IMG/VR virus record: IMGVR_UViG_3300045391_005044 | Length of the DNA stretch: 64,000 bases | From: a virus | Reading direction: 5' to 3' (one strand) | Shown: positions 14,079 through 40,686 of the stretch, in pieces | Position numbering within the stretch: position 1 is the stretch's first letter | Layout of the letters: the number at the start of each line of letters is the position of its first letter | The notes under the pieces: generated by a model | Told to the model about the DNA's origin: nothing | Databases searched by the model: none | Seen by the model: the letters and a program-made list of their open reading frames with translations, nothing else | Position numbers and translations under genes: made by a program

Positions 14079-14081
14079 CCC

Positions 14082-14901: not shown

Positions 14902-15053
14902 AACCAACTAACCCCAAACCCCTCCGCGTCCGCTGCACCGATTGCAAACAGCAATTCGTTCTACCCTCTCCCGAATGTAACGGCATAGGACAGCCTTACA
15001 GGTGTAGTGAGTGCGGGAAGAGATTGATAATTAATAAAAACCAAAAACAGTAA
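14898..15053 (+). CDS. small (51 aa) zinc-ribbon protein, not in ORF track
   Basis: MKPTNPKPLRVRCTDCKQQF...YRCSECGKRL has two CxxC pairs. ATGA overlap upstream, and the next ATG follows 3 nt after its stop. Confidence 0.45.
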   Translation: MKPTNPKPLRVRCTDCKQQFVLPSPECNGIGQPYRCSECGKRLIINKNQKQ

Positions 15054-15056
15054 ATT

Positions 15057-15392: not shown

Positions 15393-15431
15393 TAAACACA
15401 AAACCCCTCCCGAGGGTATCGGGGAGAGAAT

Positions 15432-22464: not shown

Positions 22465-23232
22465 TTAAGGGAGCCAGGCGTTTATATCGGCTATAGCCTG
22501 GTTTAGGCTGGCGAGTGTTCCCTGGTTCCAGGTAGGCTTGTTCGATACATCCTGCAGTTCAATGTTGAATTTGCGATCGCCTGTTGCCAGAATCTCAATG
22601 ATGGTAATTGTTGGGTATGGATAGATCCATTCCCCTGGGTATGATCTTGGCTGACTGTCACCTTCTGCAACAGCTGTGTCGCCGGTTATTGTAAGCACAA
22701 GATCGTTTGCCGGCGAAGCTCCGCCAAGGTCGGTACCCAAAATGGTAATGGTATCACCCACCTGGTACCCGGTGCCTGCGGTTACAACGGTCACGGTATC
22801 ATACACGCCCGTCGCGTCCGTCACATCAAAAGTGGCACCTGTTCCTGATCCGCTGGTTGTTCCTGATACGCCGTTCCATGTTCCAGGGCCCGCAGATGTG
22901 CCTGCCTTGGAAAATGAACCATTAATGGTCAGGTCTTCTCCGTCTTCAAATTGGCCCACAACATCGTTGAGTTCAAATCCACCAGTTCCAATGAAACCTG
23001 CTATTGTTCCGGTTGCTCCGGATGTAACTCCAGTAACAGTGTCTCCGATAGATGCCGGAGAAGATATTGATGAATAAAACAGATCTGCATTGGAAGGCTT
23101 CTTGTTGAATTTCACAGGATATACGCCAACGATCTCACCCATAGGTATGAGTTCGGTGCTATTGCTTCCTGTTGGGTCTGGCGTGACCTCCATTGCGGTG
23201 GCTCCCAGAATTATGGTAACTGTTTTTGACAT
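22465..23232 (-). CDS. G/T/S-rich virion (fibre-like) protein
   Basis: 255 aa, rich in G/T/S/V beta-type repeats (GVTSGATGTIAGFIGTGG, SGTTSGSGTGATF). Lies in the fibre cluster. Confidence 0.4.
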   Translation of the reverse strand: MSKTVTIILGATAMEVTPDPTGSNSTELIPMGEIVGVYPVKFNKKPSNADLFYSSISSPASIGDTVTGVTSGATGTIAGFIGTGGFELNDVVGQFEDGEDLTINGSFSKAGTSAGPGTWNGVSGTTSGSGTGATFDVTDATGVYDTVTVVTAGTGYQVGDTITILGTDLGGASPANDLVLTITGDTAVAEGDSQPRSYPGEWIYPYPTITIIEILATGDRKFNIELQDVSNKPTWNQGTLASLNQAIADINAWLP

Positions 23233-23236
23233 AACG

Positions 23237-23244
23237 CAAATGTA
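23237..23244 (-). promoter_or_regulatory. -7 box TACATTTG 4 nt upstream of ATG (leaderless-type late promoter)
   Basis: The minus strand reads TACATTTG-cgtt-ATG for the gene starting at 23232. Confidence 0.35.
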
Positions 23245-23256
23245 GTGAATTTTCGA

Positions 23257-24198
23257 TTAAAATGGCCAAATGATCTCCTGACCAGTGTTATAAACAATGG
23301 AAGCGGATCCAGAAGTAGCTGTTTGGATCCGTACCAGTGCATTACCAGGAATAGATCCGGTAAGCTGTGTGGTTTGACCATCGTTGAGCTGCACAGTAAC
23401 CGTCAATGTAACAGAATTAGAATTTCCTATCTGCGGAATACTTATCCAGCTGCTCCCACCATTAGTACTGTATTGAAGAGTTGCTGTAGCTGATGAAGTG
23501 CCTGCAAGCAGCGGATTCGTTGATGTGCAGGAAATAGAATAGCATACAGTCTGAAATTTTGTCGTTGAAATTGTATAATTACTATTCAGTGTCCTGCTAA
23601 CGTTGTTGTTGATAGTTGGCGCCGCAATCGATATTGTATAGTTTGGAGCAGATCCTGTAATCGTAATTCCATTTCCAGCTGTAAAATTAGCATTACTTCC
23701 GTCTGCACCGGCAGGTCCAACTGGCCCCTGCGGTCCAGTTGCTCCGGTAGGCCCCGTCGAACCAGGCATTCCCTGCGGTCCCTGATCCCCTTGTGGACCA
23801 GTAGCACCGGTGGCACCCGTTGGGCCAGTAGGACCTTGTGGTCCAGGATTTGATGAAGCATAAGCTCGTAATATAGATAATGAGTCATTAAGTCCAGACA
23901 CGTCCGATGTTTTCAGGTTTACCGGACGCAGGATACCGTATTTGTCGGCTGCAATTACCCGGTAGTTCTCGGTTAAATAGGAACTCGTTGAATCTAGCGG
24001 AAAGATCCTGAAATACGTGGTGTCGAACTTTATGATCGTATCGAAAAAAGGATCTTCGAATCCTACCATCTGGTAAGAGTGGTGGATGTTTCCTGACCAC
24101 AGCGGATTATCGTTAACTAAGTACCAATCGGATGAAGTGATTTGCGCTCTGATCAGGGTAGTCAGGAGCATGAACGTAAGGACGATTTTTGTTTTCAT
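23257..24198 (-). CDS. collagen-like repeat protein with N-terminal signal-like peptide (fibre protein)
   Basis: 16 consecutive G-X-Y triplets ([49 protein letters not shown]). N-terminus [19 protein letters not shown]. Confidence 0.7.
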
Positions 24199-24205
24199 GA
24201 TTATT

Positions 24206-24406
24206 TTATTTTTGGATTTTCGATTTAATGCTCTCTACGGTGCTGCAGATAACGCCGTTTATTTTCGTGTCACCCGCTAAAAACAGCTTATACTCTCCGC
24301 TCAGTATGATGTGTAGGCTTAGGATATCGATCTCTTCTATTCCATCGAAAGAATACTCCTTGCCTTTGTACAATACCGTTCCGTTTTTCTTTTCTAGTTC
24401 TTGCAT
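24206..24406 (-). CDS. hypothetical small protein
   Basis: 66-aa ORF between two fibre genes. A chaperone role is possible but unsupported. Confidence 0.45.
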
Positions 24407-24410
24407 ATAA

Positions 24411-25442
24411 TCAATATTTTTTTCTGTTCATGATCGATGCTCCTTTTATAAACAGTGTATCGGATGCGCTACCAAGCTGTCCAGCAAATATGATGTAATT
24501 AATTACCGTTGGATCGATTGTAATGTTAGAGCCGTTGGAAGAGGATATAACCACCTCCTGCAAGTTGTTCGTTGTGGTGGAACCATATCCGTACAAATTG
24601 GTTGCACTTGTCATGTAATACGTACGCTGCCCGAACATATACAGGTTAGTAGAAGCTATACCCGTTACACCTCCTATTAATGTTGCTCCGGAAAGGCTAT
24701 TTACAGTATTGATATATACACGCACCGCCATAGTGCCAGCCGTGCCGGTCTTGTCAACTATACACTCCCATCTGAACGAGTCATTGATACCTAATGTATT
24801 AGCTGGAATTGTAAGAGGGTTTGCAAATGCTGTTGACGAGGTTGTTCCTGTTACACTCCCTATGTCAGTTCTTTGATCTATGATATAAGTAACACTTGCG
24901 CTGGTTATCTTTGACCAGGCAAGGGATGTTATCCATGATGGGTTTGCGTAGGAGCCTGCCAAGGCCACGAATGTGGATGCCGCGTTAGTGATGGTGAGGT
25001 ATGTTGAAGCGGCGGTAGAGGCGAGCAAATAGCCTAGGCCCGTTACATATGAAACCACAGCAGACCATACAGGGAACTTCGTAGTGCTGCCAGAGTCGGA
25101 AGTGGAGGTTGATTTGTTTGATGAGTCTTCTTTTGTATTCCACTGCGTTGAGTTTTTGAGTGTAGCTGATGTAACGAACTCATCTGTATTCGTTCCGGAG
25201 TTTACAGTAGCCTGTGATGCCTGATATGGAACCTCACTGTACGTATAAGATGTTCCGTTATCGTAGTAGTATCCTTTACCGTAATATGTGCCACCAAAAA
25301 GACCACCTACCCATTTTGTTCCTTGAGATGCAAGGACAATATAAGTCTGCCCAGGTGCAGTTCCAGCTGGGGGAAGCGCAGAGTAATTAGCAACTTCTAT
25401 TGGGGCTGTTCCGGTGCCTCCTTCTCCACCACCTAAAGGCAT
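24411..25442 (-). CDS. tail fibre-like protein
   Basis: 343 aa, S/T/G/N/Y-rich, in the fibre cluster. No catalytic motif. Confidence 0.4.
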   Translation of the reverse strand: MPLGGGEGGTGTAPIEVANYSALPPAGTAPGQTYIVLASQGTKWVGGLFGGTYYGKGYYYDNGTSYTYSEVPYQASQATVNSGTNTDEFVTSATLKNSTQWNTKEDSSNKSTSTSDSGSTTKFPVWSAVVSYVTGLGYLLASTAASTYLTITNAASTFVALAGSYANPSWITSLAWSKITSASVTYIIDQRTDIGSVTGTTSSTAFANPLTIPANTLGINDSFRWECIVDKTGTAGTMAVRVYINTVNSLSGATLIGGVTGIASTNLYMFGQRTYYMTSATNLYGYGSTTTNNLQEVVISSSNGSNITIDPTVINYIIFAGQLGSASDTLFIKGASIMNRKKY

Positions 25443-25443
25443 G

Positions 25444-27054
25444 TTATGCTAATTTTTCGATTGTTGTACGAACGTTGAGATTTCCCGAATACCTGTATCC
25501 TATACGATCTGTGCCATTTGTCCTTCCGATAATCACATTTGCCGAAGCCGCATCAGAAACGAGATTGTTAGCCACAGCACCCCCTATTGCAGTGTGAGAA
25601 AATGTTTGTTGTAATCCTGCTTCTGGAGTAAAAAACACTTCATGAGGCTTTGGAAGATTTACAATCTTAGATATAGTTTGACCAGTGTTATTTATCAGGA
25701 GAAAATTTCCAACATAATTAAGAGTTGTTGGTATTGTCAACACTCCAGCGGCAAAATCAGTAGACATATTTAATTCTCCTGGAAAATTTGAATATACCGT
25801 GCTTATTTTATTGTCAGAATAAGACAATGATCCGGAAATAGTAATTGTATAATCCTGTGAGAATGAAAGGCCTTCGTGAGCACCAGTTCCATCAAATGTA
25901 ACTTGAGACTGATTATTAAAATCAGAAGATACGAGTGACCCACTGTGCTTATTTGTAAAGTTAATTCCTCCACTTGATGAATTAAACACCTTAGATATTG
26001 TTCCTCTTTGATTTATGCAAGAGATTGATCCATAATAATCTTTGACTCCTCTTGCTTCATTATTACCCCACTGAAAGTTTTCAATGTTCACGTATATCTC
26101 ATTGAATCTTTTATCTGCTCGGTAAATAATTTGATCTCCAGAAAAACGAAACATTATAAAATCAGTTTCTTTTATATATCCAACATTTGAAGCCGTTTTT
26201 GGTAGCAATGTGTATGCAGCTGTATTAGTTGATGGATCTGATCCATCAACTGCTGTAGAGTTCACAAGTTGATAATGAAGTCCATTCCAAAACACAATAT
26301 CTCCATCAGCATATCCAGATTCATCTAAGGTATACCAAACTCCCAAAGGTTCTCCTACTGGAACACCAGTAATGTCTTCAACGCCAGAATAATCTCCATT
26401 TCCATCAAAATCAGGATTCAAAAAAATACCCTCTCCTTCCAATGATAGTTGATTTTCGGAATCTGCAAAAAGAATAAGTCCGAGATCAGCGCGATCTGTT
26501 ATTTTGTAATGATGTCCTGGAATAAACTCGCTTCCTGCAGCCATAGTTACAGCCTCTGCATAGGTTATTTCAATCAGTTCATTCTCTGGTACAGGAACCG
26601 GATTAAGCTGTAAAATAATATCATCAATTGACTCCAGCACTTCATATTCTACCAGTTCAGGATCACCGTCCTCCTGATAAAAGAAAATGGTGTTCCCGCC
26701 TGGGGTAACTTCTTTCAGGTTTTCAGAAATTCTTACAGCAACAAAAATGTAACTTTCATTTGACACATCAACGTTCCTGCGTCTAACGACTGTAAGCAAA
26801 AGGAGAGATGTTGATTTCGCTTTTACATCGGAAAATGAATCTGTAGTTTCATATTCCGTACTTCCAGCGATTCGAGAAGAAGGTGTATTGCCTTTCAGCT
26901 GCCTGGTAGTAAAGTAAAGGTCGCCTGACTGCCTGGCTCGGATGGGCGTTACAATGTCATTGACATCGAATCCAAACTCTTTTTCAGGAGAAAATGTATC
27001 TACTTTTACTCCGCTCGTTCTTTTGCTTATATTAAGGCTGATTAGCTGTCCCAT
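25444..27054 (-). CDS. tail fibre / receptor-binding-like protein
   Basis: 536 aa with beta-rich composition, directly upstream of the other fibre genes. Confidence 0.4.
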   Translation of the reverse strand: MGQLISLNISKRTSGVKVDTFSPEKEFGFDVNDIVTPIRARQSGDLYFTTRQLKGNTPSSRIAGSTEYETTDSFSDVKAKSTSLLLLTVVRRRNVDVSNESYIFVAVRISENLKEVTPGGNTIFFYQEDGDPELVEYEVLESIDDIILQLNPVPVPENELIEITYAEAVTMAAGSEFIPGHHYKITDRADLGLILFADSENQLSLEGEGIFLNPDFDGNGDYSGVEDITGVPVGEPLGVWYTLDESGYADGDIVFWNGLHYQLVNSTAVDGSDPSTNTAAYTLLPKTASNVGYIKETDFIMFRFSGDQIIYRADKRFNEIYVNIENFQWGNNEARGVKDYYGSISCINQRGTISKVFNSSSGGINFTNKHSGSLVSSDFNNQSQVTFDGTGAHEGLSFSQDYTITISGSLSYSDNKISTVYSNFPGELNMSTDFAAGVLTIPTTLNYVGNFLLINNTGQTISKIVNLPKPHEVFFTPEAGLQQTFSHTAIGGAVANNLVSDAASANVIIGRTNGTDRIGYRYSGNLNVRTTIEKLA

Positions 27055-27058: not shown

Positions 27059-27598
27059 TTATTTGTTTGATGCGATTTTTCTTATTACGTCGCCATTGTT
27101 TTTGGATCCGATTGATGTTCCTCTGTGGAAATTGAGTATAGTTCCAACAAATCCACCCAGGAGCCCGAAGGCAGTATAAAATATCTCCTTGTTTTCAGCC
27201 GGTACAGTTTTGTACACGATCATGATCAACATGATCACAAAAGCTATAACAAAGAAGGCATCTATGCAATATGCGATGTTTTTGGACATCCAGGAGGCTT
27301 TATCGCTAACCTGTATTTCCTTGTTCATATCCCTAGCGTTGGCTACGTCGGCAAGCTTTGCTTTTTCTCCTTCCAGTTCTATCCTCAGAGTCTCGTTGGC
27401 CACCTCTTCCGCCTGGATAGCTATTTTTTGAGATTCAAGGTCTGCGTTAATACGCAGCTTTTCGATATCAGCTTCAGCCTCTGCCACCTTTGTGGGATCA
27501 GCCTTGAACTTACTGATGATATTTCCTGCTGCATCCGCAATGCCGGCAATTCCACCTTTAACTAGGTCCTGTATGTTAGGCAGCTGTATTTTTGACAT
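27059..27598 (-). CDS. holin-like membrane protein
   Basis: N-terminal GGIAGIADAAGNIISKFKADP followed by a coiled-coil, then two or three C-terminal TM helices (IAYCIDAFFVIAFVIMLIMIVY, FYTAFGLLGGFVGTILNF). This layout resembles 3-TM holins of GTA/phage type. Confidence 0.45.
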   Translation of the reverse strand: MSKIQLPNIQDLVKGGIAGIADAAGNIISKFKADPTKVAEAEADIEKLRINADLESQKIAIQAEEVANETLRIELEGEKAKLADVANARDMNKEIQVSDKASWMSKNIAYCIDAFFVIAFVIMLIMIVYKTVPAENKEIFYTAFGLLGGFVGTILNFHRGTSIGSKNNGDVIRKIASNK

Positions 27599-28229
27599 CT
27601 TTCGATTCTATTAGTGTTCCTGTGAATTTTTTGCCGTATCTTTTTACAGCCTTCCTGATCACTGGTAGGATCTTTTTGAACTCCGGCTCTGGAGCTCCCA
27701 TACATCCGAGTGACCAATTGTTGACCTGTCCGGAACCATAAGTGTCAATATGGCTCATGATGTGCCAGTGGGTTCCAAAAATACGATCTTCCTGGTCCTG
27801 TACGTGGTCGATAACAAGATCCTTATCTCCATCTCTCCAGTAATCAACCGGTCCAACCTGGCGGAAGTACGGATATTTGGAAAATTCATCGAATGTATCA
27901 TGAAACTCCCACGCGCCAGGATATTGACCAGGCTTTATAACTGCAGTTCCAGTAACTCCATCAACGGTTACCGGTTCAAGGATAGATCCCTTCAGACCGG
28001 GCTTTGTTGTAGCCGGTATTGTGAGTATCACTCCAGCACCTCCTTCCACTTCCTGGTAGCAAATGTGCAACAGATCGGTGAAGTGGTTCGTAAATTCATC
28101 GGAAGTCCTCTCCCAGATGCAATTTACGTTATTTTCTCCCTCAAACCACTTATGTCCAAGTGCCTTTACTGAGTCCTTTATTTGGGCATAAGTACGAATC
28201 ATATTCCGATAAATTTGTGTTTTATCCAT
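27576..28229 (-). CDS. putative peptidoglycan hydrolase (endolysin candidate; H...SxGC motif)
   Basis: THWHIMSH...VNNWSLGCMG resembles the His/Cys catalytic motif of YkuD-like and other cell-wall enzymes. Flanked by two TM proteins. An alternative ATGA-coupled start is at 28202. Confidence 0.4.
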   Translation of the reverse strand: MDKTQIYRNMIRTYAQIKDSVKALGHKWFEGENNVNCIWERTSDEFTNHFTDLLHICYQEVEGGAGVILTIPATTKPGLKGSILEPVTVDGVTGTAVIKPGQYPGAWEFHDTFDEFSKYPYFRQVGPVDYWRDGDKDLVIDHVQDQEDRIFGTHWHIMSHIDTYGSGQVNNWSLGCMGAPEPEFKKILPVIRKAVKRYGKKFTGTLIESKDVKNTAA

Positions 28230-28420
28230 TCAATGAATGCTCCTACAATTGGCACGCTTATAAATAAGCCTCCGGCTATCTTAGCTTTCAGCTTTTTATC
28301 ACTATCTCTGTAGCTTTCAAGAGCCTTTACTCTTTTTACAATTCCAGGATTATCCGTTGCTGCATTCCCCAGCAAACATTCATGCACCTCGCGCAACATT
28401 TTTTCTTGCTCAACATTCAT
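28199..28420 (-). CDS. small single-TM protein (holin/antiholin/spanin-like)
   Basis: 73 aa with a C-terminal TM helix IAGGLFISVPIVGAFIEWI. Adjacent to the endolysin candidate. Confidence 0.35.
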   Translation of the reverse strand: MNVEQEKMLREVHECLLGNAATDNPGIVKRVKALESYRDSDKKLKAKIAGGLFISVPIVGAFIEWIKHKFIGI

Positions 28421-28421: not shown

Positions 28422-29039
28422 TTAGCAACCGGTTTGATCTGAGTTGATAGTTACAGTGTCAGTAAAGCCTCCGTCGTCAGTATAGGCGGTTATTGTGCAG
28501 GTTCCTGTTCCCGTTTCGGTAACCAAGCCCGTGTTTATATCCACAGTTGCCACTGCAATGTTACTACTAAGCCATTTCACTTTTTTGTTTGACGCATTGG
28601 CAGGAAGAACAGTTGCAGTGAGTTGCACTGTAGTTCCGCTACAATGCATGGCAATAGGAGATGAGTTATCTATAGACATTCCGGTAACGGCTACGTTTTT
28701 CGTGCCGATCTCCACGGTTGTTGTCTTATTTCCGTTTGTATCAAATCCGGAAGTAGATGTTACAACGAATCCAGTCCCCATAAGGATTCCGAATTCATTA
28801 GACGTGATCATGCCACTGCTGAATGCGCAGGTAACACTATCAACTATTTTTTTCGCAATGTCGCAGGTGCAGCAGTCCGACAAATCACTGCTTGCATCGG
28901 AGTAGGCCCTCACCGATCCATCGGAATACATCAGAGATAGAATGTTGCTGTTCTCTGTGTTGATAAAAAGGGTAGCCTCGCCTGATGGAGGAGCGGTCAA
29001 TGTAGAAGCCGCCGCTACGATTATATTTGCTGTTGCCAT
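28422..29039 (-). CDS. Ig-like (Big_2-type) domain virion protein
   Basis: The C-terminal VTGMSID..TVQLTATVLPANASNKKVKWLSSNIAVATVDINTGLVTETGTGTCTITAYT matches the bacterial Ig-like group 2 pattern. It also has DCCTCD and ends in TGC. Confidence 0.6.
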   Translation of the reverse strand: MATANIIVAAASTLTAPPSGEATLFINTENSNILSLMYSDGSVRAYSDASSDLSDCCTCDIAKKIVDSVTCAFSSGMITSNEFGILMGTGFVVTSTSGFDTNGNKTTTVEIGTKNVAVTGMSIDNSSPIAMHCSGTTVQLTATVLPANASNKKVKWLSSNIAVATVDINTGLVTETGTGTCTITAYTDDGGFTDTVTINSDQTGC

Positions 29040-29040
29040 A

Positions 29041-29388
29041 TTATGCTGGTGGGTTTACTACGTTATACAAATCAGCAAATTCAGATTCCGTAACACAACC
29101 GAGAACCGCTCCGGTGGCATTGTTCACCAGCTTGATGTATCCATCGGCACACGTGAAAGTGTTTTTCTGGTACAACTCCGCATCGTATGGAGTCAGGCAC
29201 CCGGCATGGTTCCCCTTGTCGTCATAAATGGCAACAAGCCCAGGAGGGCAGCAACTGCACTTTGGATCATTACAGTCTCCATTGCATTCTTCGCACGGAG
29301 ATCCATGATGATGCATTTCGCCCATGCATTTGCCTTTCAAGAATTTGAGGTATTCTTTGGGATCGGTATATGAACTCTTTTCTGCCAT
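29041..29388 (-). CDS. Cys/His-rich small protein
   Basis: CMGEMHHHGSPCEECNGDCNDPKCSCCPPG cluster (9 Cys and 3 His in 30 aa). Confidence 0.5.
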   Translation of the reverse strand: MAEKSSYTDPKEYLKFLKGKCMGEMHHHGSPCEECNGDCNDPKCSCCPPGLVAIYDDKGNHAGCLTPYDAELYQKNTFTCADGYIKLVNNATGAVLGCVTESEFADLYNVVNPPA

Positions 29389-29399
29389 TACTGATTATT

Positions 29400-29774
29400 T
29401 TAATTACAACATGGATTACAGATTGAGCACAGTAAACGGACTTGCTCAATTATTTCGCTAATCTCAAAATCAGTAAGGCAGGGTTCTACTTCTTTGCGCA
29501 CACAGATGTGCTTATCCTTCAGTTCCAAAGTTAAAAAAGAATTTTTCTTCTTCAACATGGAAAAGCTAACTATTTGATTTTCAAAAGGAATCTTTTCTTT
29601 TTCGTATACCACTTTTTTCTCATTTCTCTCCAGTATTCGAATGTAAAAGTTTATGCGAAGTAGATTATAGAATGTCTCTTCGGTTCCGTTTCCATATACA
29701 GCCTCTCTTGTCCATTTAAGGGCAAGGTTACCGGAGCAGCATTTTGCTTCGCATATGATGTCGTGAAGGTTCAT
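29400..29774 (-). CDS. small protein with Cys-rich termini
   Basis: N-terminal CEAKCCSG and C-terminal CSICNPCCN. Confidence 0.5.
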   Translation of the reverse strand: MNLHDIICEAKCCSGNLALKWTREAVYGNGTEETFYNLLRINFYIRILERNEKKVVYEKEKIPFENQIVSFSMLKKKNSFLTLELKDKHICVRKEVEPCLTDFEISEIIEQVRLLCSICNPCCN

Positions 29775-30610
29775 TATATTTTTTGAACAAAAATAAGTGC
29801 GTAGTAAGGAGGTCTGTTTTCGTGGGCTTCTCCGGCGCCAGAATTATTGATCGTGATGCCTGTTCCTGAATTCCCGTTTGTGATACCAGTAAATGCAGAT
29901 TGCGTGCTTATACCGGTATTTGAAGAGTTCGTTGTAAGCATGCTCGCCGATGAGTCGGTTGTTCCTGAGTGGGAGTGTTCTCCAGCAATTCCTGATGATC
30001 CATTTGTAACCGGGCTGTTTGCTGCGGTTGCCCCCGTGCCTCCATCGTCAACCAGATCCACCAGTTCGGGAATAGCGTGGGAGTGATTTCCTGCTGAGTT
30101 CGTGGTGAACGTATGATTGTGAGCTGCAGTTGTACCTGAGTGGGTGTGTCCAGGGTCTGTTACCCCGTGGGTGTGTCCAGGGTCTGTTACCCCGTGGGTG
30201 TGTCCAGGGTCTGTTACGCTGTGGGTGTGTGATCCGTTTTGATTGGCTGTAAGAGCCACAGTGTTAAATCCGCCTGTGTCTCCAACTGCATATGTTCCGG
30301 TAGCCATAACTACAAAACGATCGATAAGATTTGGCGTGGTTATCATCTCTTCCGTTTCCGGATTTTCATGTGTTTTGCCGTCGCAAACGGCCCAACCTTC
30401 CCAGCACTTTGATCCCTTTCCGGTTACCAAGTCAAAATATTGAACGTCATTCGGGTTTTGTATCATCAAAATTGGATGACCGCAAAGCAAGAATTTCACC
30501 TGATTCGTAAGATCATCTATTTGGTTCTGAATTTGAGAAATTGTTCCTTCTGATCCAGTAGAAGATCCTTTGCAGCCACAGCTTTTTTTTCCACATTTAT
30601 TGCATCCCAT
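29774..30610 (-). CDS. tail-collar/fibre protein with seven HxH motifs
   Basis: GWAVCDG..TPNLIDRFVV..GG and the C-terminal NRPPYYALIFV are tail-collar-domain hallmarks. Motifs HTH x4, HNH and HSH x2. N-terminus MGCNKCGKKSCGCKG. Confidence 0.65.
   Translation of the reverse strand: MGCNKCGKKSCGCKGSSTGSEGTISQIQNQIDDLTNQVKFLLCGHPILMIQNPNDVQYFDLVTGKGSKCWEGWAVCDGKTHENPETEEMITTPNLIDRFVVMATGTYAVGDTGGFNTVALTANQNGSHTHSVTDPGHTHGVTDPGHTHGVTDPGHTHSGTTAAHNHTFTTNSAGNHSHAIPELVDLVDDGGTGATAANSPVTNGSSGIAGEHSHSGTTDSSASMLTTNSSNTGISTQSAFTGITNGNSGTGITINNSGAGEAHENRPPYYALIFVQKI
30140..30233. repeat. 27-nt tandem repeat, ~3.5 copies (encodes GHTHGVTDP units)
   Basis: gtgggtgtgtccagggtctgttacccc repeats at 30140, 30167 and 30194, with a partial copy at 30221. 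Confidence 0.85.
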
Positions 30611-30612
30611 TT

Positions 30613-31170
30613 TTATACTTTTATGAGGTTTTTTGTTCCGGTTATTATTTTAGCATTTGTTCCAGAAGTGATGCTCCCAGTTTCTACAGACAACAAATCG
30701 GTTGTCAATAGCCCAGAAAGATAAACCATTGACGATGCTGAAATTTTTTGATCTGTTGGTATTTTTATAAATTTTTCAGATAGGACAACATCCGCTCCAT
30801 TTTTCTTCACTTTAAAAGAAAATTCAAGTGCAGCGTCTCCACTATCAATATTTAATTCTACAAAAAGAAAGTAATTTCCGTTAACTGGAGGCGATCCAAC
30901 GCCAGTGGCGAAAAACCCTCCATTAGGAAGTGCAGAATTGCTTGGAATATAAAGCGGAACAGACAAAATAGATCCAGCTGGACCAGGATCTCCTTGTGGT
31001 CCCGGATCACCCTGAGGCCCCGGATCTCCTTGTGGTCCAGGTTCACCATCTTCGCCAGATGGTCCTGGCGGACCCACATCACCTGGTCTTCCAGGAGGTC
31101 CTACTGGACCTCGATCTCCTCTCCTTCCTTTTACAGAAGTGGCTTTATTACAACATTTATCTTTGCACAT
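30613..31170 (-). CDS. collagen-like repeat fibre protein
   Basis: 17 G-X-Y triplets ([52 protein letters not shown]). N-terminus MCKDKCCNK. Confidence 0.7.
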
Positions 31171-31182
31171 TTGGGTTGTATC

Positions 31183-31764
31183 TTAACAACAGCAACACTT
31201 GCACTGACCTTTCAGGTACTCAATAATATCGTTGGCTGAATCCAATAAATCACAATCAATGTGGTACTGCGCAGATTGCAGTAAGTTTTCGAGTTCTATA
31301 ATCTTTTTTTGCTTATCGTCTTTAAAGGCATCCTTTCCTACTTTTTTGCCCAGCTTGTCAATGCAGCAGGAAACGTTTTTGATGAAGACAAAAGACATCA
31401 TAACGCTTTTGGTATAAGATACTCCATTTTTATCCTTACCGGAAACGGTATAACGAATGGTGTATTTTCCACTTTCAATTCCACTATTAGCAGCATGCTG
31501 CCCGATCATTTCTGGAAAGATTTCAAATCCAAACTCCTTGTCGTTGGGCATGTCGGAGTACACTTTTATTTTGTACGGAGCAGCTGTTGCGGAATATGGA
31601 ATGGCTGGGGTATATATCTCCAAAAAAGCATCTTCAACATCCTTTATTTTTGGATTGTAAACCCCATATCCACCTTGGTTATCGGATGAATAGTTACCCG
31701 TGCAATCATAAACCACAAAGGAATTTTTAAGCTCAGAGGTAGATATTTTAAGGATGAGGCTCAT
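31183..31764 (-). CDS. virion protein ending in CKCCCC
   Basis: 193-aa ORF, first gene after a leaderless-type promoter. C-terminus GQCKCCCC. Confidence 0.5.
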
Positions 31765-31788: not shown

Positions 31789-34539
31789 TTATTTCGATCG
31801 TTTTTTCTTCCTTCCGTATTTTTTGTAGTTCTTTTTAGCCGAATCTCCTTCATCAACCGAAGACTGGCCTGCGGCTTTGAGATCGCTACCGTATTTCTGA
31901 GCAGTAAGACTTTTTGCTGACTCCAGGCCGTCCTGATACAGCCTCGATAATGTCTGCGATCTCACTTCGTAGCTGTCGTTTTTGAAGTCTTCACTGTTGA
32001 TGTACGGCGTGGCCGCTATCAGCCGGAAAGTGCTGGCTTTGTCGATAAGGAATTCATGCTGTTCCGGCGTAAGTTCCACTGAAATGGCATTCCTGCCTTT
32101 CCCAAAGCTCTGTGTTTTGTCCACAGAACTTGGAAACATCTTCTCTCTTTCCTCTTTTTCTACTTCCCCGGCAGAATCAAGCAGTTTTTTGATAGGCCCA
32201 TCGATCACCTCCTTGGACTTGAACACCCCGAATTCTTCCTGCAGCGCCCGGCCAAGGTAATTATCGAAGAACATGTGATCTTTCTTCTTTAAAGCCTCTC
32301 CTTCACCAGCCAGGGAGTAGTACTTGTTTTTCATGTCCTTGCCTCCCTGAAACAGGAATTTATACCCGAGCATGTTGGCGACGTTTTCTCCAAAGGATTG
32401 ATCACGATCGTATGCCTGCTTTTTGTTTTCATCGGTGGACATCGATAACTTCTGCACCGTAGAAGGCTCTATGCCTCCAAGTGTAGAAGACAGTAGCGAA
32501 AGGGCGTATTTGTTCATCTTGTCATTGTCGGATTTCATTGCTTCCAGCAGCTGATTGGTTCCTGACAGGAACGTGAGATCAAGTGAAGATCCCAACAGAG
32601 ACAGACCTAGTTCTCCGGGGTGAGCCAGAGCTCTCGAAAATTTAACCTGATCCTTTTTCTCCTCTTCGGAGTATTTGTTGTATGTCCTGGCGTATGTTCC
32701 GAGCACTACTCCGAGAATACCCAAAGAGTTTAGATCGACGGTTCGATCTCCTTTTTGCCATTTACCGTCTCCACCTGTCATTATCCGTAGCATAGCACTC
32801 CAATTCACCCGGTTTGCCCCACCCAGCTGCTGCTCGATGACGTCCAGTGTTTTTCTCTTTTCGTCACCAAAGCCGGCTGTTATTGCTCCTGCAGCAATGG
32901 CCTGGAAAGCTACAGATCGGAGGTAATACCCAACCGCCGCATGAGCTATGCCATCAACAAGGATCTGTTGACGCTCATTGCCATTTTTAGCGTTCACCGC
33001 AAGAAATGTGGCCCTTCCGATTTCATATTCCGGTAGCAGGTATCTGGATGCCAATCTTACGATATTAATTGGCGTTTTTATAAACGGCGCCACCATTGTT
33101 ACTGCCCACGCAGATAGACCGGTTCTAACCTTAGCAACAAAAGGACTTGATCCGTCAGCAATGAGTTTTTTGTATCTCTCCCGAGGGTTGTAATTGAGCT
33201 TCTGCACCAATTTATTATCCGACCGGAAGGTTACTTCTTCTGCCAGCTTTGTGGCAACCTCTATGCTTTCCTGATCCGGATTTAGCATAAATAGCTCTTT
33301 TTCTGCCCCGGTAAGGCCTTTCTGCGTGGCGATATTCTCCAGTTCACTCCTCACGAAATTATCGTAGAAAAAGGCATCTGTGGCCCCCAGGGTCCTTTTT
33401 ATGAAGTCGGGTGTAACCTTTAGCGCCAAAGCTACGGCGTTGATCACCTTTTGCTTGCCGTGAGAGTCGATGAATTTTTTGTATGCCGTTACGGAATTCA
33501 GGTAGTCTGATGCTGGGAGGGTGCGGTCAAATTCCGTGCGCCCGTATCCCCAGGATTCCATTGAGTTTTTGAATGACTTGTCGGCATTCATAAGCCCGCC
33601 AATGAACCTGGCGCCGATCCTGCCAGACTTTGTTCCGTATTTTTTCTGGGTAACCGGATTTATCATTGCCGACAATACTCCAGAAACCAGATTTTTGGGC
33701 TGGCGTACAGCGAGATCAAATGCAGCTCCTGTCAAGTTTTTGAGAAGGGAGACCGGCGTCATTAGGTTCATTCGGATATTGTCCGCCAGGTCCCAGGCCC
33801 AGAATGATTTTTCACGCAGGTACTGCGCAAGCTTTGTTTGCGACCGGTTCACCTCAGATTTTGCTTTTTGCTGGCGAATAGCAAGGGCTTTTATCTTTTC
33901 GATAAGCTCCTTGTCCTGCTCCTTCGTCACTTTTCCATCCTGAGCGCCCTTGAGATCATCAATTTCTTTGTATAGAGACTGTATCTCCGAGTCAATCTTG
34001 TCATATTCCTTCATTGCTGACGAACTCTTTTTGATGAGATCTTTTATCTCGTCATTCATTGCAGGAATTCCAACGGCTTCAGCATACGCATCCATGACGT
34101 CATCATGTAAAAGCACGCCTTGGCTTTCAAATTTATCATACATTTTTTTAGCCACAGCCTTCTGCTGATCTTGAGTAAGACCAGTGAATTTGCCAACAGC
34201 TTTTTCTATCTTTCTTTGCTCTCTGAATGCTTCCTGTTCAATCTTTTTTTGTTCGGCTTTAGCTTCAACTGCTTGTTTTTTTTCCTCGTCAGTAAGCCTC
34301 TTTCTTTTGCCGCCAAAAGTATATGATTCATCCAAGATCCCCTTTTCTTTCATGGCAGACACGATCGGATCAACGAAGCTAGAAACTTCGAAATCAAGAT
34401 CCGGGTGTTTATCCTGTATCTCAGAAATTGCATACCTGAAAGATTTAGTGGCATTGCCGGTAAGCATAAATGATCTCTCCAGGGCTTCAATTCCGGTATT
34501 GTACGCTTCAGCACTATCTTTTATATCACACTTTTTCAT
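31789..34539 (-). CDS. large virion protein (916 aa), possible internal/ejection protein
   Basis: Long ORF with a K/E-rich coiled N-terminal third. Sits between the giant proteins and the fibre cluster. No enzymatic motif recognised. Confidence 0.4.
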   Translation of the reverse strand: MKKCDIKDSAEAYNTGIEALERSFMLTGNATKSFRYAISEIQDKHPDLDFEVSSFVDPIVSAMKEKGILDESYTFGGKRKRLTDEEKKQAVEAKAEQKKIEQEAFREQRKIEKAVGKFTGLTQDQQKAVAKKMYDKFESQGVLLHDDVMDAYAEAVGIPAMNDEIKDLIKKSSSAMKEYDKIDSEIQSLYKEIDDLKGAQDGKVTKEQDKELIEKIKALAIRQQKAKSEVNRSQTKLAQYLREKSFWAWDLADNIRMNLMTPVSLLKNLTGAAFDLAVRQPKNLVSGVLSAMINPVTQKKYGTKSGRIGARFIGGLMNADKSFKNSMESWGYGRTEFDRTLPASDYLNSVTAYKKFIDSHGKQKVINAVALALKVTPDFIKRTLGATDAFFYDNFVRSELENIATQKGLTGAEKELFMLNPDQESIEVATKLAEEVTFRSDNKLVQKLNYNPRERYKKLIADGSSPFVAKVRTGLSAWAVTMVAPFIKTPINIVRLASRYLLPEYEIGRATFLAVNAKNGNERQQILVDGIAHAAVGYYLRSVAFQAIAAGAITAGFGDEKRKTLDVIEQQLGGANRVNWSAMLRIMTGGDGKWQKGDRTVDLNSLGILGVVLGTYARTYNKYSEEEKKDQVKFSRALAHPGELGLSLLGSSLDLTFLSGTNQLLEAMKSDNDKMNKYALSLLSSTLGGIEPSTVQKLSMSTDENKKQAYDRDQSFGENVANMLGYKFLFQGGKDMKNKYYSLAGEGEALKKKDHMFFDNYLGRALQEEFGVFKSKEVIDGPIKKLLDSAGEVEKEEREKMFPSSVDKTQSFGKGRNAISVELTPEQHEFLIDKASTFRLIAATPYINSEDFKNDSYEVRSQTLSRLYQDGLESAKSLTAQKYGSDLKAAGQSSVDEGDSAKKNYKKYGRKKKRSK

Positions 34540-34542: not shown

Positions 34543-37500
34543 TTAGCAATCTTTAAGGTCGTTTTTCAATGAAGCGAAAAGAGATGCAGCCTTGTTGGAC
34601 TTTTCTTCTCCAAGCACTGATTTTGATATTTCAGCTATTTTTTCATTCACGGCTTTTTGTAAATTCTGGCTCCATTCGGCTTGAATCTCTTCATTCGCGG
34701 ATTTTATTTGAGACTTTTCTTTTTCAGTAAGCGTTTCTTCCTGAATAGATTTCACCTTCTGATGTACAGCCTCTCTAGTAAGTGCTTCTGAGGAAGAAAC
34801 GGTTCCCAGTTCCTTATTCACAACATCCTGAAGAGACGCTTGCACACCCGCATTGTAACCGAAATCTGTAAATTTGGTGTACAACTTACCGGCGATCGAC
34901 ATCAACATGTCTGCTTCTGCTGGATTTATTCCTTCTCTTTCAGAAAGCTCGGCTATTCTTTTTGCCATGAATCCATAAGCAACTCCATTCACTATGTCAG
35001 GAAATATGCTTTTACCGTTTGCCATGTCCGTTGCCAATTCTACAAGGGAGCCCTCTTTTTGAAACTGATCAAGCTTTTTGGACACATACTCAGCCACTTT
35101 TTTCTTTTTTGTGACATTGTACATGACGTCTTCTTCAGAAACGCTTCCTCTCAGTTTTTTAAATTCAGGATCGTCTTCTATTCTCGCAATTGATTTTTTC
35201 TTTTTCTTTTCTCCATCAGAAAAATCAACACTTTCTGTAGATTTATTTTGTTCACCCGGTTTACTCTCTTCTGTTTCTTGAGTTGATTTTTTTTCGGGCT
35301 CACTCTTTTCTTTTTCAGCAGAAGGCTTTTTCTCCTTATCAACGGAAGGCGTTTTAGGCGTCTCCTCCTCTTTTTTCAAGGTGGCTTCAACTTCTTTTTC
35401 AAAAGTATCTTCATCAATAATTCCGGCATCCACCAGCTTTTGGTATTTTGGATTTTTGACCTTTATGTATGCAACCGCTTTTTTAACGGCTTTCGCCAAG
35501 TCATACCCTCCTTTATCAATGACCAGAACTGTAGCTTTTGATGTAAGATCAATGAGATCAGAAACAACCTTTGGAGTAACACCGGGAGCAGAGAAGGCTT
35601 TATTCATTTTGGTTCCATCTCCAAGTATTTTTTTCTTGACGTCCTCGAAAAACTGTTCAGCCTTTATTTTTGCCTCTTCCTTATCAAGATCAAATTTCCC
35701 ACCAAGCACCTGGGCAGCTTTTCTTTTGTATTCAGTATAAGTAGATCTCGATATTTTGTCCTCGTTGCGCATCTTATACGCGCGTTCTATCATACCCTTA
35801 AATTTTTTCTCTACCTTGTCCTTTTCGGACATCTTCTTCATAACCTCCAGATCGTCGTTTATTTTTTGAAGAGATGCCGGATCTTCTTTTTTTGTGTCGT
35901 CAGACTCTTCTTCAGATAGCTCCTGCTTAGTAGCGGCTTGTTTCTGCGGCTGTTCTTCTACAGCCTCTTCTTCTGAAACTTTCTCTGTCGGCTTTTTGTT
36001 GCGCATCCCCTCAAGAGCATCGTATTTGTCAGATTGAATGGGAAGCTCTGCACCGGTCTTTACGCTGGTGTATTTAGCAACATTTTTGTCATTCACTTCA
36101 ACATAGAAATCTTGACCGGCAACCCTCATCGTCTTTCGCTCCTCTGGCTTAATTTCCGGATTGACATTGTTTTCTTCTGTCGATGCGACCTCTTTTTCGT
36201 TCTCGTATTTATGGGTATCATTGAAGGCCTTATCGGCCTGCTCTTGAACCTGCTTGCTTACCTTTGATAATTCACCGCCTATACTCTGCTTCCACTCTCC
36301 GTTGTCAAACACCATATTCCTTTCCAGTCCTCCTTTTATTTGAGCCGGTAGAGACACTTTCATTTCAATGGGAGCACTTTCTTCCTTAGCAGGGGTTTCT
36401 ACGGACAATTCAACAGGCTTCCTGGCTTCAGTACTGTCGACTTCTGTCAGACCTTCCTGCTGCATTTTGTTGTCTTCATCGGTAGTTAATACTTCGGCTT
36501 CGTTGGTTTTTTTGACTTTTTCATCTTTTTGCTGTTTTTCGTTTAATATTTCCTCTTCAAGTCCATCCAGAATATCGTTGTCATCTACGTCTGGTATTCC
36601 GTTCAGAGCATTTTGTATACGCTCATCAATGCTGGCTACCTCTTCCTTTTTAATGGATTTGAAGTTGCTGTCCACTGACTTCTCCTCCTGCTCTTTGATC
36701 ATTTTGTTGATCATTTCAGGAAGAATATCGATCTGCTTTTCTACGGGAATGTTTTGATCCATTTTCTTTAAAGCCTCTGATGCGATAGTTATATTTTGCA
36801 TCACATCAGCTGCTTTTTGATCGGATATTTGCCCCGACTTAATCATGCTCTCCAAAGAGCCTATTACTTTATCCGGAGCATAGGCAGCCATGTATAAAGA
36901 TTGCTTGTCCAAAGAAGATCTTGTCTTTATGGAGCTTTTGCCACTTATTCCAAGTGTTGTAAGAGCCGTAATAATAGACGTTTCTATCATTTGCTCCCCA
37001 AGACTTTGCCTGGCGGATGACAGTTCACCGGATAATTCCTTTGAGGCATATTTATTGGCTACCTCGTCCAAAAGCTGTAAATTCTCCTGAGCTACTTCTG
37101 GAACAGTCTTCTTTATTATTTCTTTCGTGGTCTCGAGCAGCGCTTCTTTTCTCGTAGCACCGCTGGCAACCTTCTTTGAAAACTCAGCAATGTCGCCTTT
37201 TATTTTGCCAGGAGTGATCAGCTTTTCATTTGGAGACACTAATTCCAAAAGCGCCTGCTGTGTGGCCAGTGATCTTGAAAAGTTTACAGCTTCTCTTTCT
37301 GACATTCCAGCTTCTTTGGCTTCGTCATAGTAACCAGAAGCGCTCATTACGTATCCTGAAACAACAGATCCCATAGATGACGCGGCTTCACCGCTGAGAG
37401 CTGGTGCAGCGATCTCTCCCGTCCCCTTTGTCAGTGCGATCATAATTGCCATGTCGGTAGCTGTTCCGGCAACCTTTCCTGGAAGATACTTTAGGTTCCA

Positions 37501-39102
37501 ATTACCGTCTTCAAGGAGCGGTTTGTCAAGGCCTGTAGGGGCTGTAATATATTCATCGTTGAAGTCGTCAATATTTGACTTCGTTATGTCATATAGCTTG
37601 TCTGTCCATCCATACTCCGAATTAGAAGTAAGAGATTTTGGTATATACGACAGCTTTGATAATGTGTTTGTGATAGCTCTTGACACCGATTCACCAACTC
37701 CGAAATCGGTGACTTTTCCCTCAACAAAATCTTTTTCCTTTTGCTTTTTAGCCTTCTGCTCTATAAGCTTTTTGTATTCAGGAAGATCTTTAAATGCTTC
37801 TGGGTTTTTAGTAGCCAAATCATAATATTGAGAAGAAAGATCGTTGTAATTTTTTTGAACGTCTGACATCAGTTGAGTAGCATCCATGAAATCCTGATCC
37901 TGTTTTATCTCATCCTGTCTTTTTCTTTTTTGTTCAAATGACGTGGCGAGCTCATTTCTTTTAGCGAGTAGAGCCTCTGTTTCTTTTCTGTTGGAAGCAT
38001 TTGGAATTACCTGCCCTTGTTCGTTTTTAGGTAATTTATCAATTTGAGCTTGTATTGAGGCCAACTGATCGTAATCCTTTTGAATATCAGAGTTCAATGT
38101 ATTGAATTCTGACACCTTGTCTTTGTAGTAGTTATTTATATTGTTCTCGGCCATTTGATATTTAGCCTTGAACGCCTTTGTTTTCAATTCAAAAGCTTTG
38201 GATTGTAACTCGGCTTGGTATCTTTCCAGCGCGAGCTGATCCTCTGATGTGTCTTCCTTATCCTCCCCAGTTTTCTTGTCTTTTTCTACTGTTCCCCGAA
38301 GACTGGTTAGTTTCTCCTGGGTATAATTATACTCGTCTGGGTTTTTAGCCTTCAGATATTCCATGTAAAAATCGACAGTGGAATGCTTGTCTGAAATTGG
38401 AAGATTCATTGCAGCCCTCTTTGGAAGAAAATCCTTATCGTAGAAATCCGCCACATCCTTCAGTTCTTCTTCTTTTTTGTCATTAAGATACTGAATTGCT
38501 CCTCGCTGATCGTTGTCGCTCATGGTTAGCGAGTTCAGATACGGTATATTGGAATTATCTGTTTTTGTTGTGGTTGATATTGGGGTAGATCTTCTTTTGC
38601 CAAGAGGAGAAAACGTGGTGTATGAAGATGGCTGATCAATTTTCTTCCCGAAAATTTCATCTTCTGTTGGGATTGAAAGTTTCTGCTTTCCTTCCAGGTC
38701 AATTATCTGCTTCTCGTATTCCTGCTCTTCCTTAGAAAGAGGCTGTACCTTTGCTGGAGTATACGGAACAGATGGCTGCTCTCCAACAGGAGCCAGCGTA
38801 AATGGATTTACTCTTCCTGGAAGATCAAACTGACCTGCAGATGCCGATGGTGTAGCTGTTAATCCTGATGTTCCACCTGCCAAAACTGATGGTGCACTTG
38901 TATTTACGACTGCCGGATTTGAGGTAGATGGTGATGGACCTGCTACACTTTTTTTTTTAACGAGGTCTACCTGGTCGGCATACTCTGGATACTTCTGAAC
39001 CATTTTCGAGGCCAATTCAAAATCATCAACATCCTTGTAATCTGGATATTTTGCTTTTATGGCCTGAGCGAACTCTGTGTATGATTTTCTTCCTTCTGGC
39101 AT
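34543..39102 (-). CDS. giant virion protein (1519 aa), coiled-coil rich
   Basis: Uninterrupted 4.56-kb ORF with extensive K/E/Q heptad-like stretches and S/T/P linkers. Function unknown. Confidence 0.45.
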   Translation of the reverse strand: MPEGRKSYTEFAQAIKAKYPDYKDVDDFELASKMVQKYPEYADQVDLVKKKSVAGPSPSTSNPAVVNTSAPSVLAGGTSGLTATPSASAGQFDLPGRVNPFTLAPVGEQPSVPYTPAKVQPLSKEEQEYEKQIIDLEGKQKLSIPTEDEIFGKKIDQPSSYTTFSPLGKRRSTPISTTTKTDNSNIPYLNSLTMSDNDQRGAIQYLNDKKEEELKDVADFYDKDFLPKRAAMNLPISDKHSTVDFYMEYLKAKNPDEYNYTQEKLTSLRGTVEKDKKTGEDKEDTSEDQLALERYQAELQSKAFELKTKAFKAKYQMAENNINNYYKDKVSEFNTLNSDIQKDYDQLASIQAQIDKLPKNEQGQVIPNASNRKETEALLAKRNELATSFEQKRKRQDEIKQDQDFMDATQLMSDVQKNYNDLSSQYYDLATKNPEAFKDLPEYKKLIEQKAKKQKEKDFVEGKVTDFGVGESVSRAITNTLSKLSYIPKSLTSNSEYGWTDKLYDITKSNIDDFNDEYITAPTGLDKPLLEDGNWNLKYLPGKVAGTATDMAIMIALTKGTGEIAAPALSGEAASSMGSVVSGYVMSASGYYDEAKEAGMSEREAVNFSRSLATQQALLELVSPNEKLITPGKIKGDIAEFSKKVASGATRKEALLETTKEIIKKTVPEVAQENLQLLDEVANKYASKELSGELSSARQSLGEQMIETSIITALTTLGISGKSSIKTRSSLDKQSLYMAAYAPDKVIGSLESMIKSGQISDQKAADVMQNITIASEALKKMDQNIPVEKQIDILPEMINKMIKEQEEKSVDSNFKSIKKEEVASIDERIQNALNGIPDVDDNDILDGLEEEILNEKQQKDEKVKKTNEAEVLTTDEDNKMQQEGLTEVDSTEARKPVELSVETPAKEESAPIEMKVSLPAQIKGGLERNMVFDNGEWKQSIGGELSKVSKQVQEQADKAFNDTHKYENEKEVASTEENNVNPEIKPEERKTMRVAGQDFYVEVNDKNVAKYTSVKTGAELPIQSDKYDALEGMRNKKPTEKVSEEEAVEEQPQKQAATKQELSEEESDDTKKEDPASLQKINDDLEVMKKMSEKDKVEKKFKGMIERAYKMRNEDKISRSTYTEYKRKAAQVLGGKFDLDKEEAKIKAEQFFEDVKKKILGDGTKMNKAFSAPGVTPKVVSDLIDLTSKATVLVIDKGGYDLAKAVKKAVAYIKVKNPKYQKLVDAGIIDEDTFEKEVEATLKKEEETPKTPSVDKEKKPSAEKEKSEPEKKSTQETEESKPGEQNKSTESVDFSDGEKKKKKSIARIEDDPEFKKLRGSVSEEDVMYNVTKKKKVAEYVSKKLDQFQKEGSLVELATDMANGKSIFPDIVNGVAYGFMAKRIAELSEREGINPAEADMLMSIAGKLYTKFTDFGYNAGVQASLQDVVNKELGTVSSSEALTREAVHQKVKSIQEETLTEKEKSQIKSANEEIQAEWSQNLQKAVNEKIAEISKSVLGEEKSNKAASLFASLKNDLKDC

Positions 39103-40684: not shown

Positions 40685-40686
40685 AT

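Follow-up and report, generated by a model that had tools for sequence, protein, structure and literature searches.

Cysteine clusters on a putative tail-fibre hub and on the fibre proteins encoded after it in an uncultured phage

The window analysed here, a stretch of 64,000 nucleotides of viral DNA (IMG/VR record IMGVR_UViG_3300045391_005044), derives from an uncultured phage, and a megablast of 22 kb of it against phage genomes gave no nucleotide match. Between positions 28422 and 31764 it carries six open reading frames (ORFs) on the minus strand, arranged head to tail, in which a first-pass annotation made from the letters alone had noticed clusters of cysteine (Cys); all six ORFs and all the motifs that it listed are present. 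The products had been described together as fibre-region proteins. Two of them are fibres, and the remainder are one hub-like protein, two small proteins without an assigned role and one protein with an immunoglobulin (Ig) domain. The features of the region, with protein lengths in amino acids (aa), are these:

31183..31764, minus strand: 193-aa hub-like protein, proposed docking hub of tail fibres (AlphaFold2 (AF2) model, family of 655 clusters, weak links to the crassvirus tail hub protein A (THA), a family member detected by mass spectrometry (MS))
31186..31206, minus strand: C-terminal Cys cluster QCKCCCC of the 193-aa protein, residues 187-193 (C188, C190 and C193 conserved in at least 90% of 72 diverse members)
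31363..31368, minus strand: internal CC of the 193-aa protein, residues 133-134 (at least 90% conserved in alignment A3, invariant in alignment A1)
30613..31170, minus strand: 185-aa collagen-like fibre with a Cys tag, 18 G-X-Y triplets and a globular C-terminal domain (Pfam Collagen and PHROG tail-fibre matches)
31144..31170, minus strand: N-terminal tag MCKDKCCNK of the collagen-like fibre (3/3 Cys 100% conserved, against 29% for the rest of the protein)
29774..30610, minus strand: 278-aa HxH-repeat tail fibre (phrog_8469, PDB 8KEC_A, seven HxH motifs)
30566..30610, minus strand: N-terminal tag MGCNKCGKKSCGCKG of the HxH fibre (Cys-rich starts in orthologues)
29400..29774, minus strand: 124-aa protein with Cys at both ends (CEAKCC at residues 8-13, 29736-29753; ends CSICNPCCN, 29403-29429)
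29041..29388, minus strand: 115-aa protein (variable Cys/His/Asp/Glu-rich N-terminal region, 29242-29328; invariant CSCCPPGL; small alpha/beta domain with three invariant Cys)
28422..29039, minus strand: 205-aa Ig-like (Big_2) structural protein (Pfam Big_2, phrog_215; CCxC motif at 28860-28877; C-terminal TGC at 28425-28433)

Cysteine accounts for 45 of the 1100 residues (4.1%) of the six proteins, as against 218 of 19539 (1.1%) in the other 76 proteins of the window (Fisher p = 3e-12). Their first 15 and last 10 residues hold 20 Cys where 1.7 would be expected (binomial p = 8e-16), and the region contains nine of the 16 CC dipeptides of the window. Permutation of the gene order gave p = 2e-4 for such a Cys-rich run. 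The first-pass annotation had made its reading depend on whether homologues share these residues, and they do so down to about 27% identity: in all six families, the Cys positions of the window show an identity of 0.75-1.00 in homologues, against 0.29-0.58 at other positions. Codon comparison among homologues further indicated that equivalent Cys positions use TGT or TGC interchangeably; selection therefore acts on the protein and not on a DNA motif, which rules out a DNA-level signal at the gene boundaries.

Contigs encoding homologues of the 193-aa protein share the same string of genes, and we refer to these related loci as L001, L002 and so on. In homologues with 41-72% identity, C21, C133, C134, C188, C190 and C193 are invariant and the C-terminal consensus is QCKCCGC. 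When 1.84 billion representative proteins were searched with a profile, 655 clusters (protein clusters at 50% identity) were retrieved at E <= 1e-3, nearly all of them of 175-205 aa, and 148 of 149 full-length representatives have at least two Cys among their last 12 residues. Alignment of 72 diverse members (A3; mean column identity, 27%) left ten positions with at least 90% conservation, five of which are Cys, corresponding to the internal CC and to a terminal CxCxxC. No Pfam family matched these 72 members, and the whole family of 655 clusters is without annotation; the 193-, 124- and 115-aa proteins had no match in PHROG or Pfam, nor had most of their neighbours. A sequence search of the PDB with the profile of homologues of the 193-aa protein (A1) likewise found nothing.

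The AF2 model of the 193-aa protein (predicted local distance difference test score, pLDDT, 83.6; predicted template modelling score, pTM, 0.80) begins with a beta-sandwich (residues 1-127), continues with three helices (129-188) and ends in a Cys tail predicted to be disordered. In Foldseek comparisons with the predicted viral structures of BFVD, three matches were relevant, among them an unnamed protein (E = 3.5e-9) and an entry named 'Structural protein [Cellulophaga phage phi17:2]' (E = 2.1e-5; template modelling (TM) scores, 0.57/0.63). The product gp058 of phi17:2 matches the hidden Markov model (HMM) of the hub family (E = 1.1e-6) and is identical to Phi4:1_gp056, which is annotated as structural from experimental tandem mass spectrometry (MS/MS) proteomics. 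At least this member of the family is thus a virion protein, a point that bears on the first-pass annotation, for which virion proteomics excluding the six proteins from the particle would have undone the proposal; for the family of the 193-aa protein, the proteomics places a member in it. In the related loci the gene is always followed by fibre genes, and we infer that the 193-aa protein is the docking hub of the tail fibres.

Both fibres are genuine. The collagen-like fibre matches Pfam PF01391 (E = 4.5e-10; 39.6 bits, with a cutoff of 27.2), and its 18 triplets form an uninterrupted G-X-Y run at residues 15-68 (30967-31128). The HxH fibre matches the tail-fibre family phrog_8469 (E = 6.8e-36) as well as phrog_31611 (E = 2.8e-15), and over residues 81-270 it also resembles the solved long tail fibre of Anabaena myophage A-1(L) (PDB 8KEC_A; E = 1.8e-8). 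Its seven HxH motifs lie at 29969-30229 and are putative metal-binding motifs. Orthologues of this fibre start with MGCGKCKKTKCSC, MCKKCNKSSCGGC, MCNICHKTPCCC, MSCNCSNNC and similar peptides.

This kind of start extends to all the fibre genes that follow the hub gene. Each related locus has between one and four fibre genes behind the hub gene, every one of which opens with a Cys cluster; examples are MCKCGKNNCCCEK, MCSTCKKSKCCC, MNCNSCHKNPCCCEK, MACKKCKNNDCCCSEK, MCNICHKTPCCC and MGCGCGGKCC. We counted the proteins with at least two Cys in their first 14 residues among the 146 same-strand proteins of 11 loci, and there are 29: the products of 21 fibre genes situated directly after the hub gene, with two to five Cys in this segment, and eight proteins of the 124-aa family. 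The remaining 117 proteins all fall below this threshold. The tag is borne alike by collagen-like fibres and by non-collagen ones, such as the HxH fibre and proteins of 359 and 490 aa. For instance, the three collagen-like paralogues and the HxH fibre of L019 are all tagged (4/4), and in L004 the tag is kept on a fibre with a different distal domain, once its start is corrected to an upstream ATG. The fibre in question (L004 7199-8134, 297 aa) had been called from a GTG, and the true ATG start lies 14 codons upstream, giving MCSTCKKSKCCC. Tagged fibres also follow the hub relatives with only about 27-30% identity (L028, L029 and L030). The tags are therefore a modular feature of the fibres, the N-terminal peptide staying constant while the distal domains vary, and this argues for a virion-proximal docking element; modular docking peptides are the best reading of the tags.

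The remaining three proteins of the region share the wealth of Cys. Genes of the 124-aa family are present in L001-L004, L008, L020, L022 and the distant L030; the homologue in L004 (about 9024-9401) is absent from public gene calls. We detected no Pfam, PHROG or THB similarity for the 124-aa protein, which may serve as a connector or associate with the hub. In the 115-aa protein, residues 21-49 form a Cys/His cluster, and the alignment of its family (A2, 29 sequences) contains eight invariant or nearly invariant Cys. The segment that precedes CSCCPPGL varies in length and is made of Cys, His, Asp, Glu and Gly, as in HHHGSPCEECNGDC, KKKHHDHEEDCEC, GCGCGETSTDPCNDCNDC and KKKHHDHEEDCECKECQEC; judging from this composition, it looks like a metal-binding segment. 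The AF2 model of this protein is poor (pLDDT 57, with the N-terminal 44 residues disordered), and no match was found in the PDB with profile A2, in BFVD with Foldseek from that poor model, or in Pfam. The Ig-like protein matches Pfam PF02368 (Big_2) at residues 117-197 (E = 2.2e-15) and phrog_215 (E = 2.3e-24). It carries DCCTCD at residues 55-60, within a CCxC...C pattern that is invariant in five homologues, and its terminal Cys is found in three of the five (window, L001 and L003). For none of the three was a THB homologue or a match in the PDB or BFVD detected. All three probably belong, with the hub and the fibres, to one cross-linked assembly.

Among proteins of known structure, the 193-aa protein can best be compared with THA, for which we took as reference gp38 of PhicrAss001 (Pfam PF25724, crAss_THA; PDB 7QOJ). 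The two are of similar length (193 and 215 aa), and both are rich in Cys and carry a CxC at the C-terminal end; the likeness in fold, judged from the N-terminal beta-sandwich and C-terminal helices of the AF2 model, is weak. The reference protein contains 11 Cys and ends in ..NCKSPTSNCGCYG, and the terminal CxC is common to ten Crassvirales THA proteins. An hhalign comparison of the 149-member hub family with the THA alignment scored 26.2 (P = 0.0022, probability 13%) over 107 colinear columns that reach the C-terminal CxC, above all the controls (100 column shuffles: mean 12.2, sd 2.4, maximum 23.0; reversed alignment: 13.7). In BFVD, Foldseek retrieved a 206-aa protein of crassvirus cr111_1 (prob 0.98, TM 0.47/0.45), whose length equals that of the cr111_1 THA gene. 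In the PDB it found nothing below E = 1e-3, and the sole near-full-length match was 7qoj_H, from the PhicrAss001 tail barrel (157 columns, TM 0.38/0.39, prob 0.87); chain H is at most a candidate for THA, the example THA chain being 7qoj_G. In all, we regard THA as the closest known analogue of the 193-aa protein and probably a remote relative, but do not assign the protein to the THA family. In the distant relative L029, the hub gene adjoins ring-like genes and a muzzle-like gene (weak match to Pfam crAss_MUZ_C). Just upstream of the hub gene, that locus also encodes a 350-aa SprB-domain protein (L029 4952-6004) with 13 Cys and a CGCPC cluster near its C-terminus.

From these data we propose a thiol lock between the hub and the tagged fibres, a reading to which we give about an even chance of being right. 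The hub, made of a beta-sandwich and a helical domain with the internal CC, and ending in a flexible CxCCxC tail, would play the role of THA, and the genes right after it would encode trimeric fibres, here one collagen-like and one of the HxH type. Each fibre would carry a docking tag, typically M-x-C-x2-C-x4-C(C)C, which would stay constant while the receptor-binding distal part is swapped or duplicated. In the virion, the hub tail and three fibre tags would bring their thiols together at the docking site, where these would most likely form inter-chain disulfides in the oxidising conditions after lysis or, less likely, a shared metal-thiolate cluster. The fibres would in this way be stapled to the hub and each trimer kept in register. 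Part of this idea was already in the first-pass annotation, which saw terminal 'clasps' between successive products. Clasps are plausible, given that the hub-like protein ends and the following fibres begin with a Cys cluster and that the tag survives domain swaps. The end-to-end joining of fibre segments that it attached to them finds no such backing, and the arrangement looks instead like several fibres docking on one hub.

Several points weigh against a lock of this kind. The similarity to THA is remote, with an hhalign probability of 13% and TM-scores to THA below 0.5. The Pfam crAss_THA family was matched neither by the protein of the window (E <= 10) nor by the 72 family members (E <= 1), although as a positive control PhicrAss001 gp38 scored 282 bits, and the HMM of the hub family recognised gp38 only at E = 0.086. 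The hub gene of the window follows two giant genes, encoding 1519 and 916 aa, and is not placed amid ring genes as in crAss001. We found no equivalent of THB either, in hhalign comparisons that included the 124- and 115-aa proteins; both were rejected as candidates, with P = 0.07-0.19. The number of Cys per tag ranges from two to five and does not track that in the hub tail, and the PhicrAss001 fibre gp22 docks without any N-terminal Cys; therefore, Cys are not generally required for docking. Lastly, we infer both the contact between tail and tag and the chemistry of the bond, and the roles given to the 124-aa, 115-aa and Ig-like proteins are guesses.

The same layout of hub and tags could serve a different chemistry, in which the Cys coordinate Zn2+, Fe or Cu in knuckle- or metallothionein-like thiolate clusters on the trimer axis, much as the His of HxH motifs hold metal in T4-type fibres. 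Many tags do have the CxxC...CxC or CxxC...CCC spacing typical of Zn sites, within sequence rich in Lys, Gly and Ser, and the 115-aa family has its variable Cys/His/Asp/Glu-rich region, exemplified by HHHGSPCEECNGDC and KKKHHDHEEDCEC. The adjacent fibre contributes seven HxH motifs, and motifs of this type bind Zn or Fe in T4 gp12 and gp37. The cytoplasm, in which virions are assembled, is moreover reducing and would allow metal sites to form. Nevertheless, orthologous tags contain anything from two to five Cys, and this variation argues against a fixed tetrahedral metal site. No zinc or metallothionein family of Pfam matched the 193-, 124- or 115-aa proteins at E <= 10, and disulfides are what has been reported for the closest solved systems, PhicrAss001 and Pam3, with zinc unmentioned in the paper on PhicrAss001 (PMC10172136). 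On balance, we regard metal coordination as unlikely, though deserving of serious attention.

It is also conceivable that the Cys act only within each protein or trimer, as cystine knots that start the triple helix and set its register, with no covalent link to the hub or to other gene products. Collagen III and collectins use such knots, the tag of the collagen-like genes directly precedes the G-X-Y repeats, and the internal Cys of the hub (C21, CC133-134 and C171) could well be intramolecular. Yet the same tag is borne by the non-collagen fibres (HxH, 359-aa and 490-aa), and it remains constant under swaps of the distal domain, as a docking element would. As for the hub tail, few parts of the 655-cluster family are better conserved, despite its predicted disorder and exposure. 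Knots confined to single trimers therefore seem to us an improbable account of the motifs.

Hardly credible, finally, is the notion that the motifs lack a structural role in the virion and serve as a signal for assembly, chaperoning or modification, or arise as a side effect of low complexity or of a nucleotide motif: the 124- and 115-aa genes do lie downstream of a fibre gene, where genes for fibre-assembly chaperones often sit, and their products have no annotated homologue, but synonymous codon variation excludes a DNA motif, position-specific conservation over 655 clusters excludes drift, a member of the hub family was detected by MS as a virion protein, and there is no lipobox or signal peptide. 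The shared modification signal suggested in the first-pass annotation is thus unsupported; lipoprotein, myristoylation and prenylation signals were rejected, since a signal peptide and a lipobox are lacking and bacteria are not known to have machinery for N-myristoylation or prenylation, and neither a thiol oxidoreductase nor a maturase was found among the ten Cys-bearing small proteins of the window.

The wider setting of the module includes a lysis-like cassette directly after it and, directly before it, the two giant genes:

34543..39102, minus strand: 1519-aa protein, presumed internal or ejected; its only Cys is the last residue (34546-34548; ..LKDC); outside the six-gene region
31789..34539, minus strand: 916-aa protein, presumed ejected; its only Cys is residue 4 (34528-34530; MKKCDIKD); outside the six-gene region
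27059-28420, minus strand: lysis-like cassette, encoding a 73-aa membrane protein, a 217-aa protein with a phrog_3000 match and a weak endolysin match, and a 179-aa membrane protein

Read along the minus strand, terminase-like, portal and capsid genes are followed by four proteins of about 250 aa and one of 1511 aa, then by proteins of 268, 523, 1519 and 916 aa, by the six Cys-rich proteins and by the lysis-like cassette, after which there are more fibre-like proteins, Cys-free or almost so. Those of 536 and 343 aa (22465-27054, minus strand) contain almost no Cys and are untagged. The portal (51722-54007) shows a weak likeness to those of crAss-like phages and crAss001, the 1511-aa protein a marginal similarity to the muzzle protein of PhicrAss001 (E = 1e-3), and one protein upstream a faint match to CrAss_Ring_2. 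We take the phage to be a podophage distantly related to the crAss-like phages, and the region to be its fibre-attachment module; taken whole, with hub, tags and lock, this picture stands in our estimation evenly between right and wrong. Megablast and tblastn searches against sequenced and cultured phages revealed no cultured member of the close group (tblastn with the 193-aa protein against cultured phages gave 0 matches), and IMG/VR yielded no relatives when scanned with P0109 or with the 193- or 916-aa protein. Adjoining the portal gene, an 820-aa ORF (54608-57070, minus strand), presumed to be the terminase, begins MDACCPQKC (start codon as called) and is the only other protein of the window with at least three terminal Cys. 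The early-gene half of the window contains a single tRNA gene, tRNA-Phe (GAA), at 5071-5143 on the plus strand.

The proteins encoded before the module are as poor in Cys as the module is rich. The 268- and 523-aa proteins (39113-41493) have none, and together with the 1519- and 916-aa proteins they contain two Cys in a total of 3226 residues, where the background of the window would predict about 36; L001 and L002 show this depletion as well. The single terminal Cys of both giants is kept in L001, L002, L004, L019 and L020, and in homologues of the 916-aa protein it lies at residues 3-5. The two giants and the six proteins of the module make up eight consecutive gene products with conserved terminal Cys. 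In the more distant relative L008 (GCA_040384165.1, JAWVHB010005672.1; 150-7397), the pair is replaced by a Cys-free 2415-aa protein. We considered that it might be a fusion of both giants. Its N-terminal half matches the 1519-aa family (hhalign, 98.5%), whereas no homology to the 916-aa family was detectable; with homology to the 1519-aa family alone, a fusion is unsupported, and what is seen is only that both terminal Cys are absent together. The pattern hints at a function for the two thiols that have been kept, and they might join the two presumed ejected proteins head to tail, although this is speculative. A bolder extension, and in our view a long shot, is a redox-gated system spanning the whole virion: the giants would be chained C- to N-terminus by one disulfide, thread the tail as one polypeptide and come free when reduced in the cytoplasm of the host, and the clasps between fibres and hub could be opened likewise, so that redox would lock the particle outside the cell and order the ejection.

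If the proposed lock between hub and tagged fibres is true, a short and transferable poly-Cys docking tag, together with a matching hub tail, mounts interchangeable receptor-binding fibres in a large group of environmental phages. This would provide a simple sequence rule by which metagenomic phages of the group could be searched for fibre genes and the anchor, explain the integrity of the virion outside the cell and offer a handle for fibre swapping, and the conserved single Cys of the two giants would yield a testable idea on the ordering of ejected proteins. Our literature search found no description of a modular poly-Cys tag on every post-hub fibre gene, of a matching Cys tail on the hub or of the breadth of the family. 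Nevertheless, disulfide-stabilised attachment of fibres is already known from Pam3 and PhicrAss001, and the initial statement that no phage fibre module built this way had been described was too strong; rather, the few structural cases of disulfide-anchored fibres would be extended to a searchable sequence pattern.

Comparable arrangements exist in several known systems. In collagen III, collectins, C1q and cnidarian minicollagens, a Cys cluster lies beside the triple helix, with the globular recognition domain at the opposite end, and the Cys link chains, and trimers into higher-order assemblies. These proteins are eukaryotic, secreted, oxidised in the endoplasmic reticulum and non-homologous to the phage fibres, and the tag described here is also present on non-collagen fibres. 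Homology does exist between the 278-aa HxH fibre and the long tail fibre gp34 of A-1(L) (PDB 8KEC), although an N-terminal Cys cluster is unreported for that protein or for T4 gp12 and gp37, and the paper describing the A-1(L) structure nowhere mentions cysteine or disulfide.

Closer in function are the fibres of PhicrAss001 and Pam3. In PhicrAss001, residues 1-26 of the trimeric fibre gp22 dock in the hub, and the fibre docking hubs and ring proteins are stabilised by disulfides (PMC10172136); unlike gp22, which has no N-terminal Cys, each fibre after the hub here has a poly-Cys tag. The trimeric fibres of the cyanophage Pam3 are attached by disulfides to Cys-rich parts of the baseplate wedge and are released by dithiothreitol (DTT) (PMC9942802). 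Pam3 thus combines Cys at the virion-proximal end of the fibre with a Cys-rich docking protein, a combination matched here at the level of sequence. However, it is a myophage with a baseplate wedge, to which no homology was detected, and it uses one Cys (Cys28) per fibre chain, whereas the tags described here are clusters of two to five Cys at the extreme terminus, with putative bonding.

Both elements can be recognised in the cultured Cellulophaga phages phi4:1 and phi17:2 (Lightbulbvirus). They differ from the phage of the window in having a 145 kb genome, a hub homologue with only one C-terminal Cys (..EYNTCN) and tagged fibres encoded away from the hub gene. In phi17:2 (L025, NC_021798; tagged and untagged tail proteins encoded within 1426-5187 and 8041-15418), three other tail proteins, gp050, gp051 and gp053, share a different, Cys-free N-terminal adaptor (..I.DLPISKV.GL.DAL). 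The likeness nonetheless covers both partners of the proposed lock: gp056 of phi4:1 and gp058 of phi17:2 are detectable members of the hub family by sequence and by fold, and phi17:2 has Cys-tagged fibres, with all seven Cys of the tail fibre gp047 within its first 30 residues (MSCKECEEIDNLTCGCEEYCDCS...) and gp048 starting with MCKKTGCKED.

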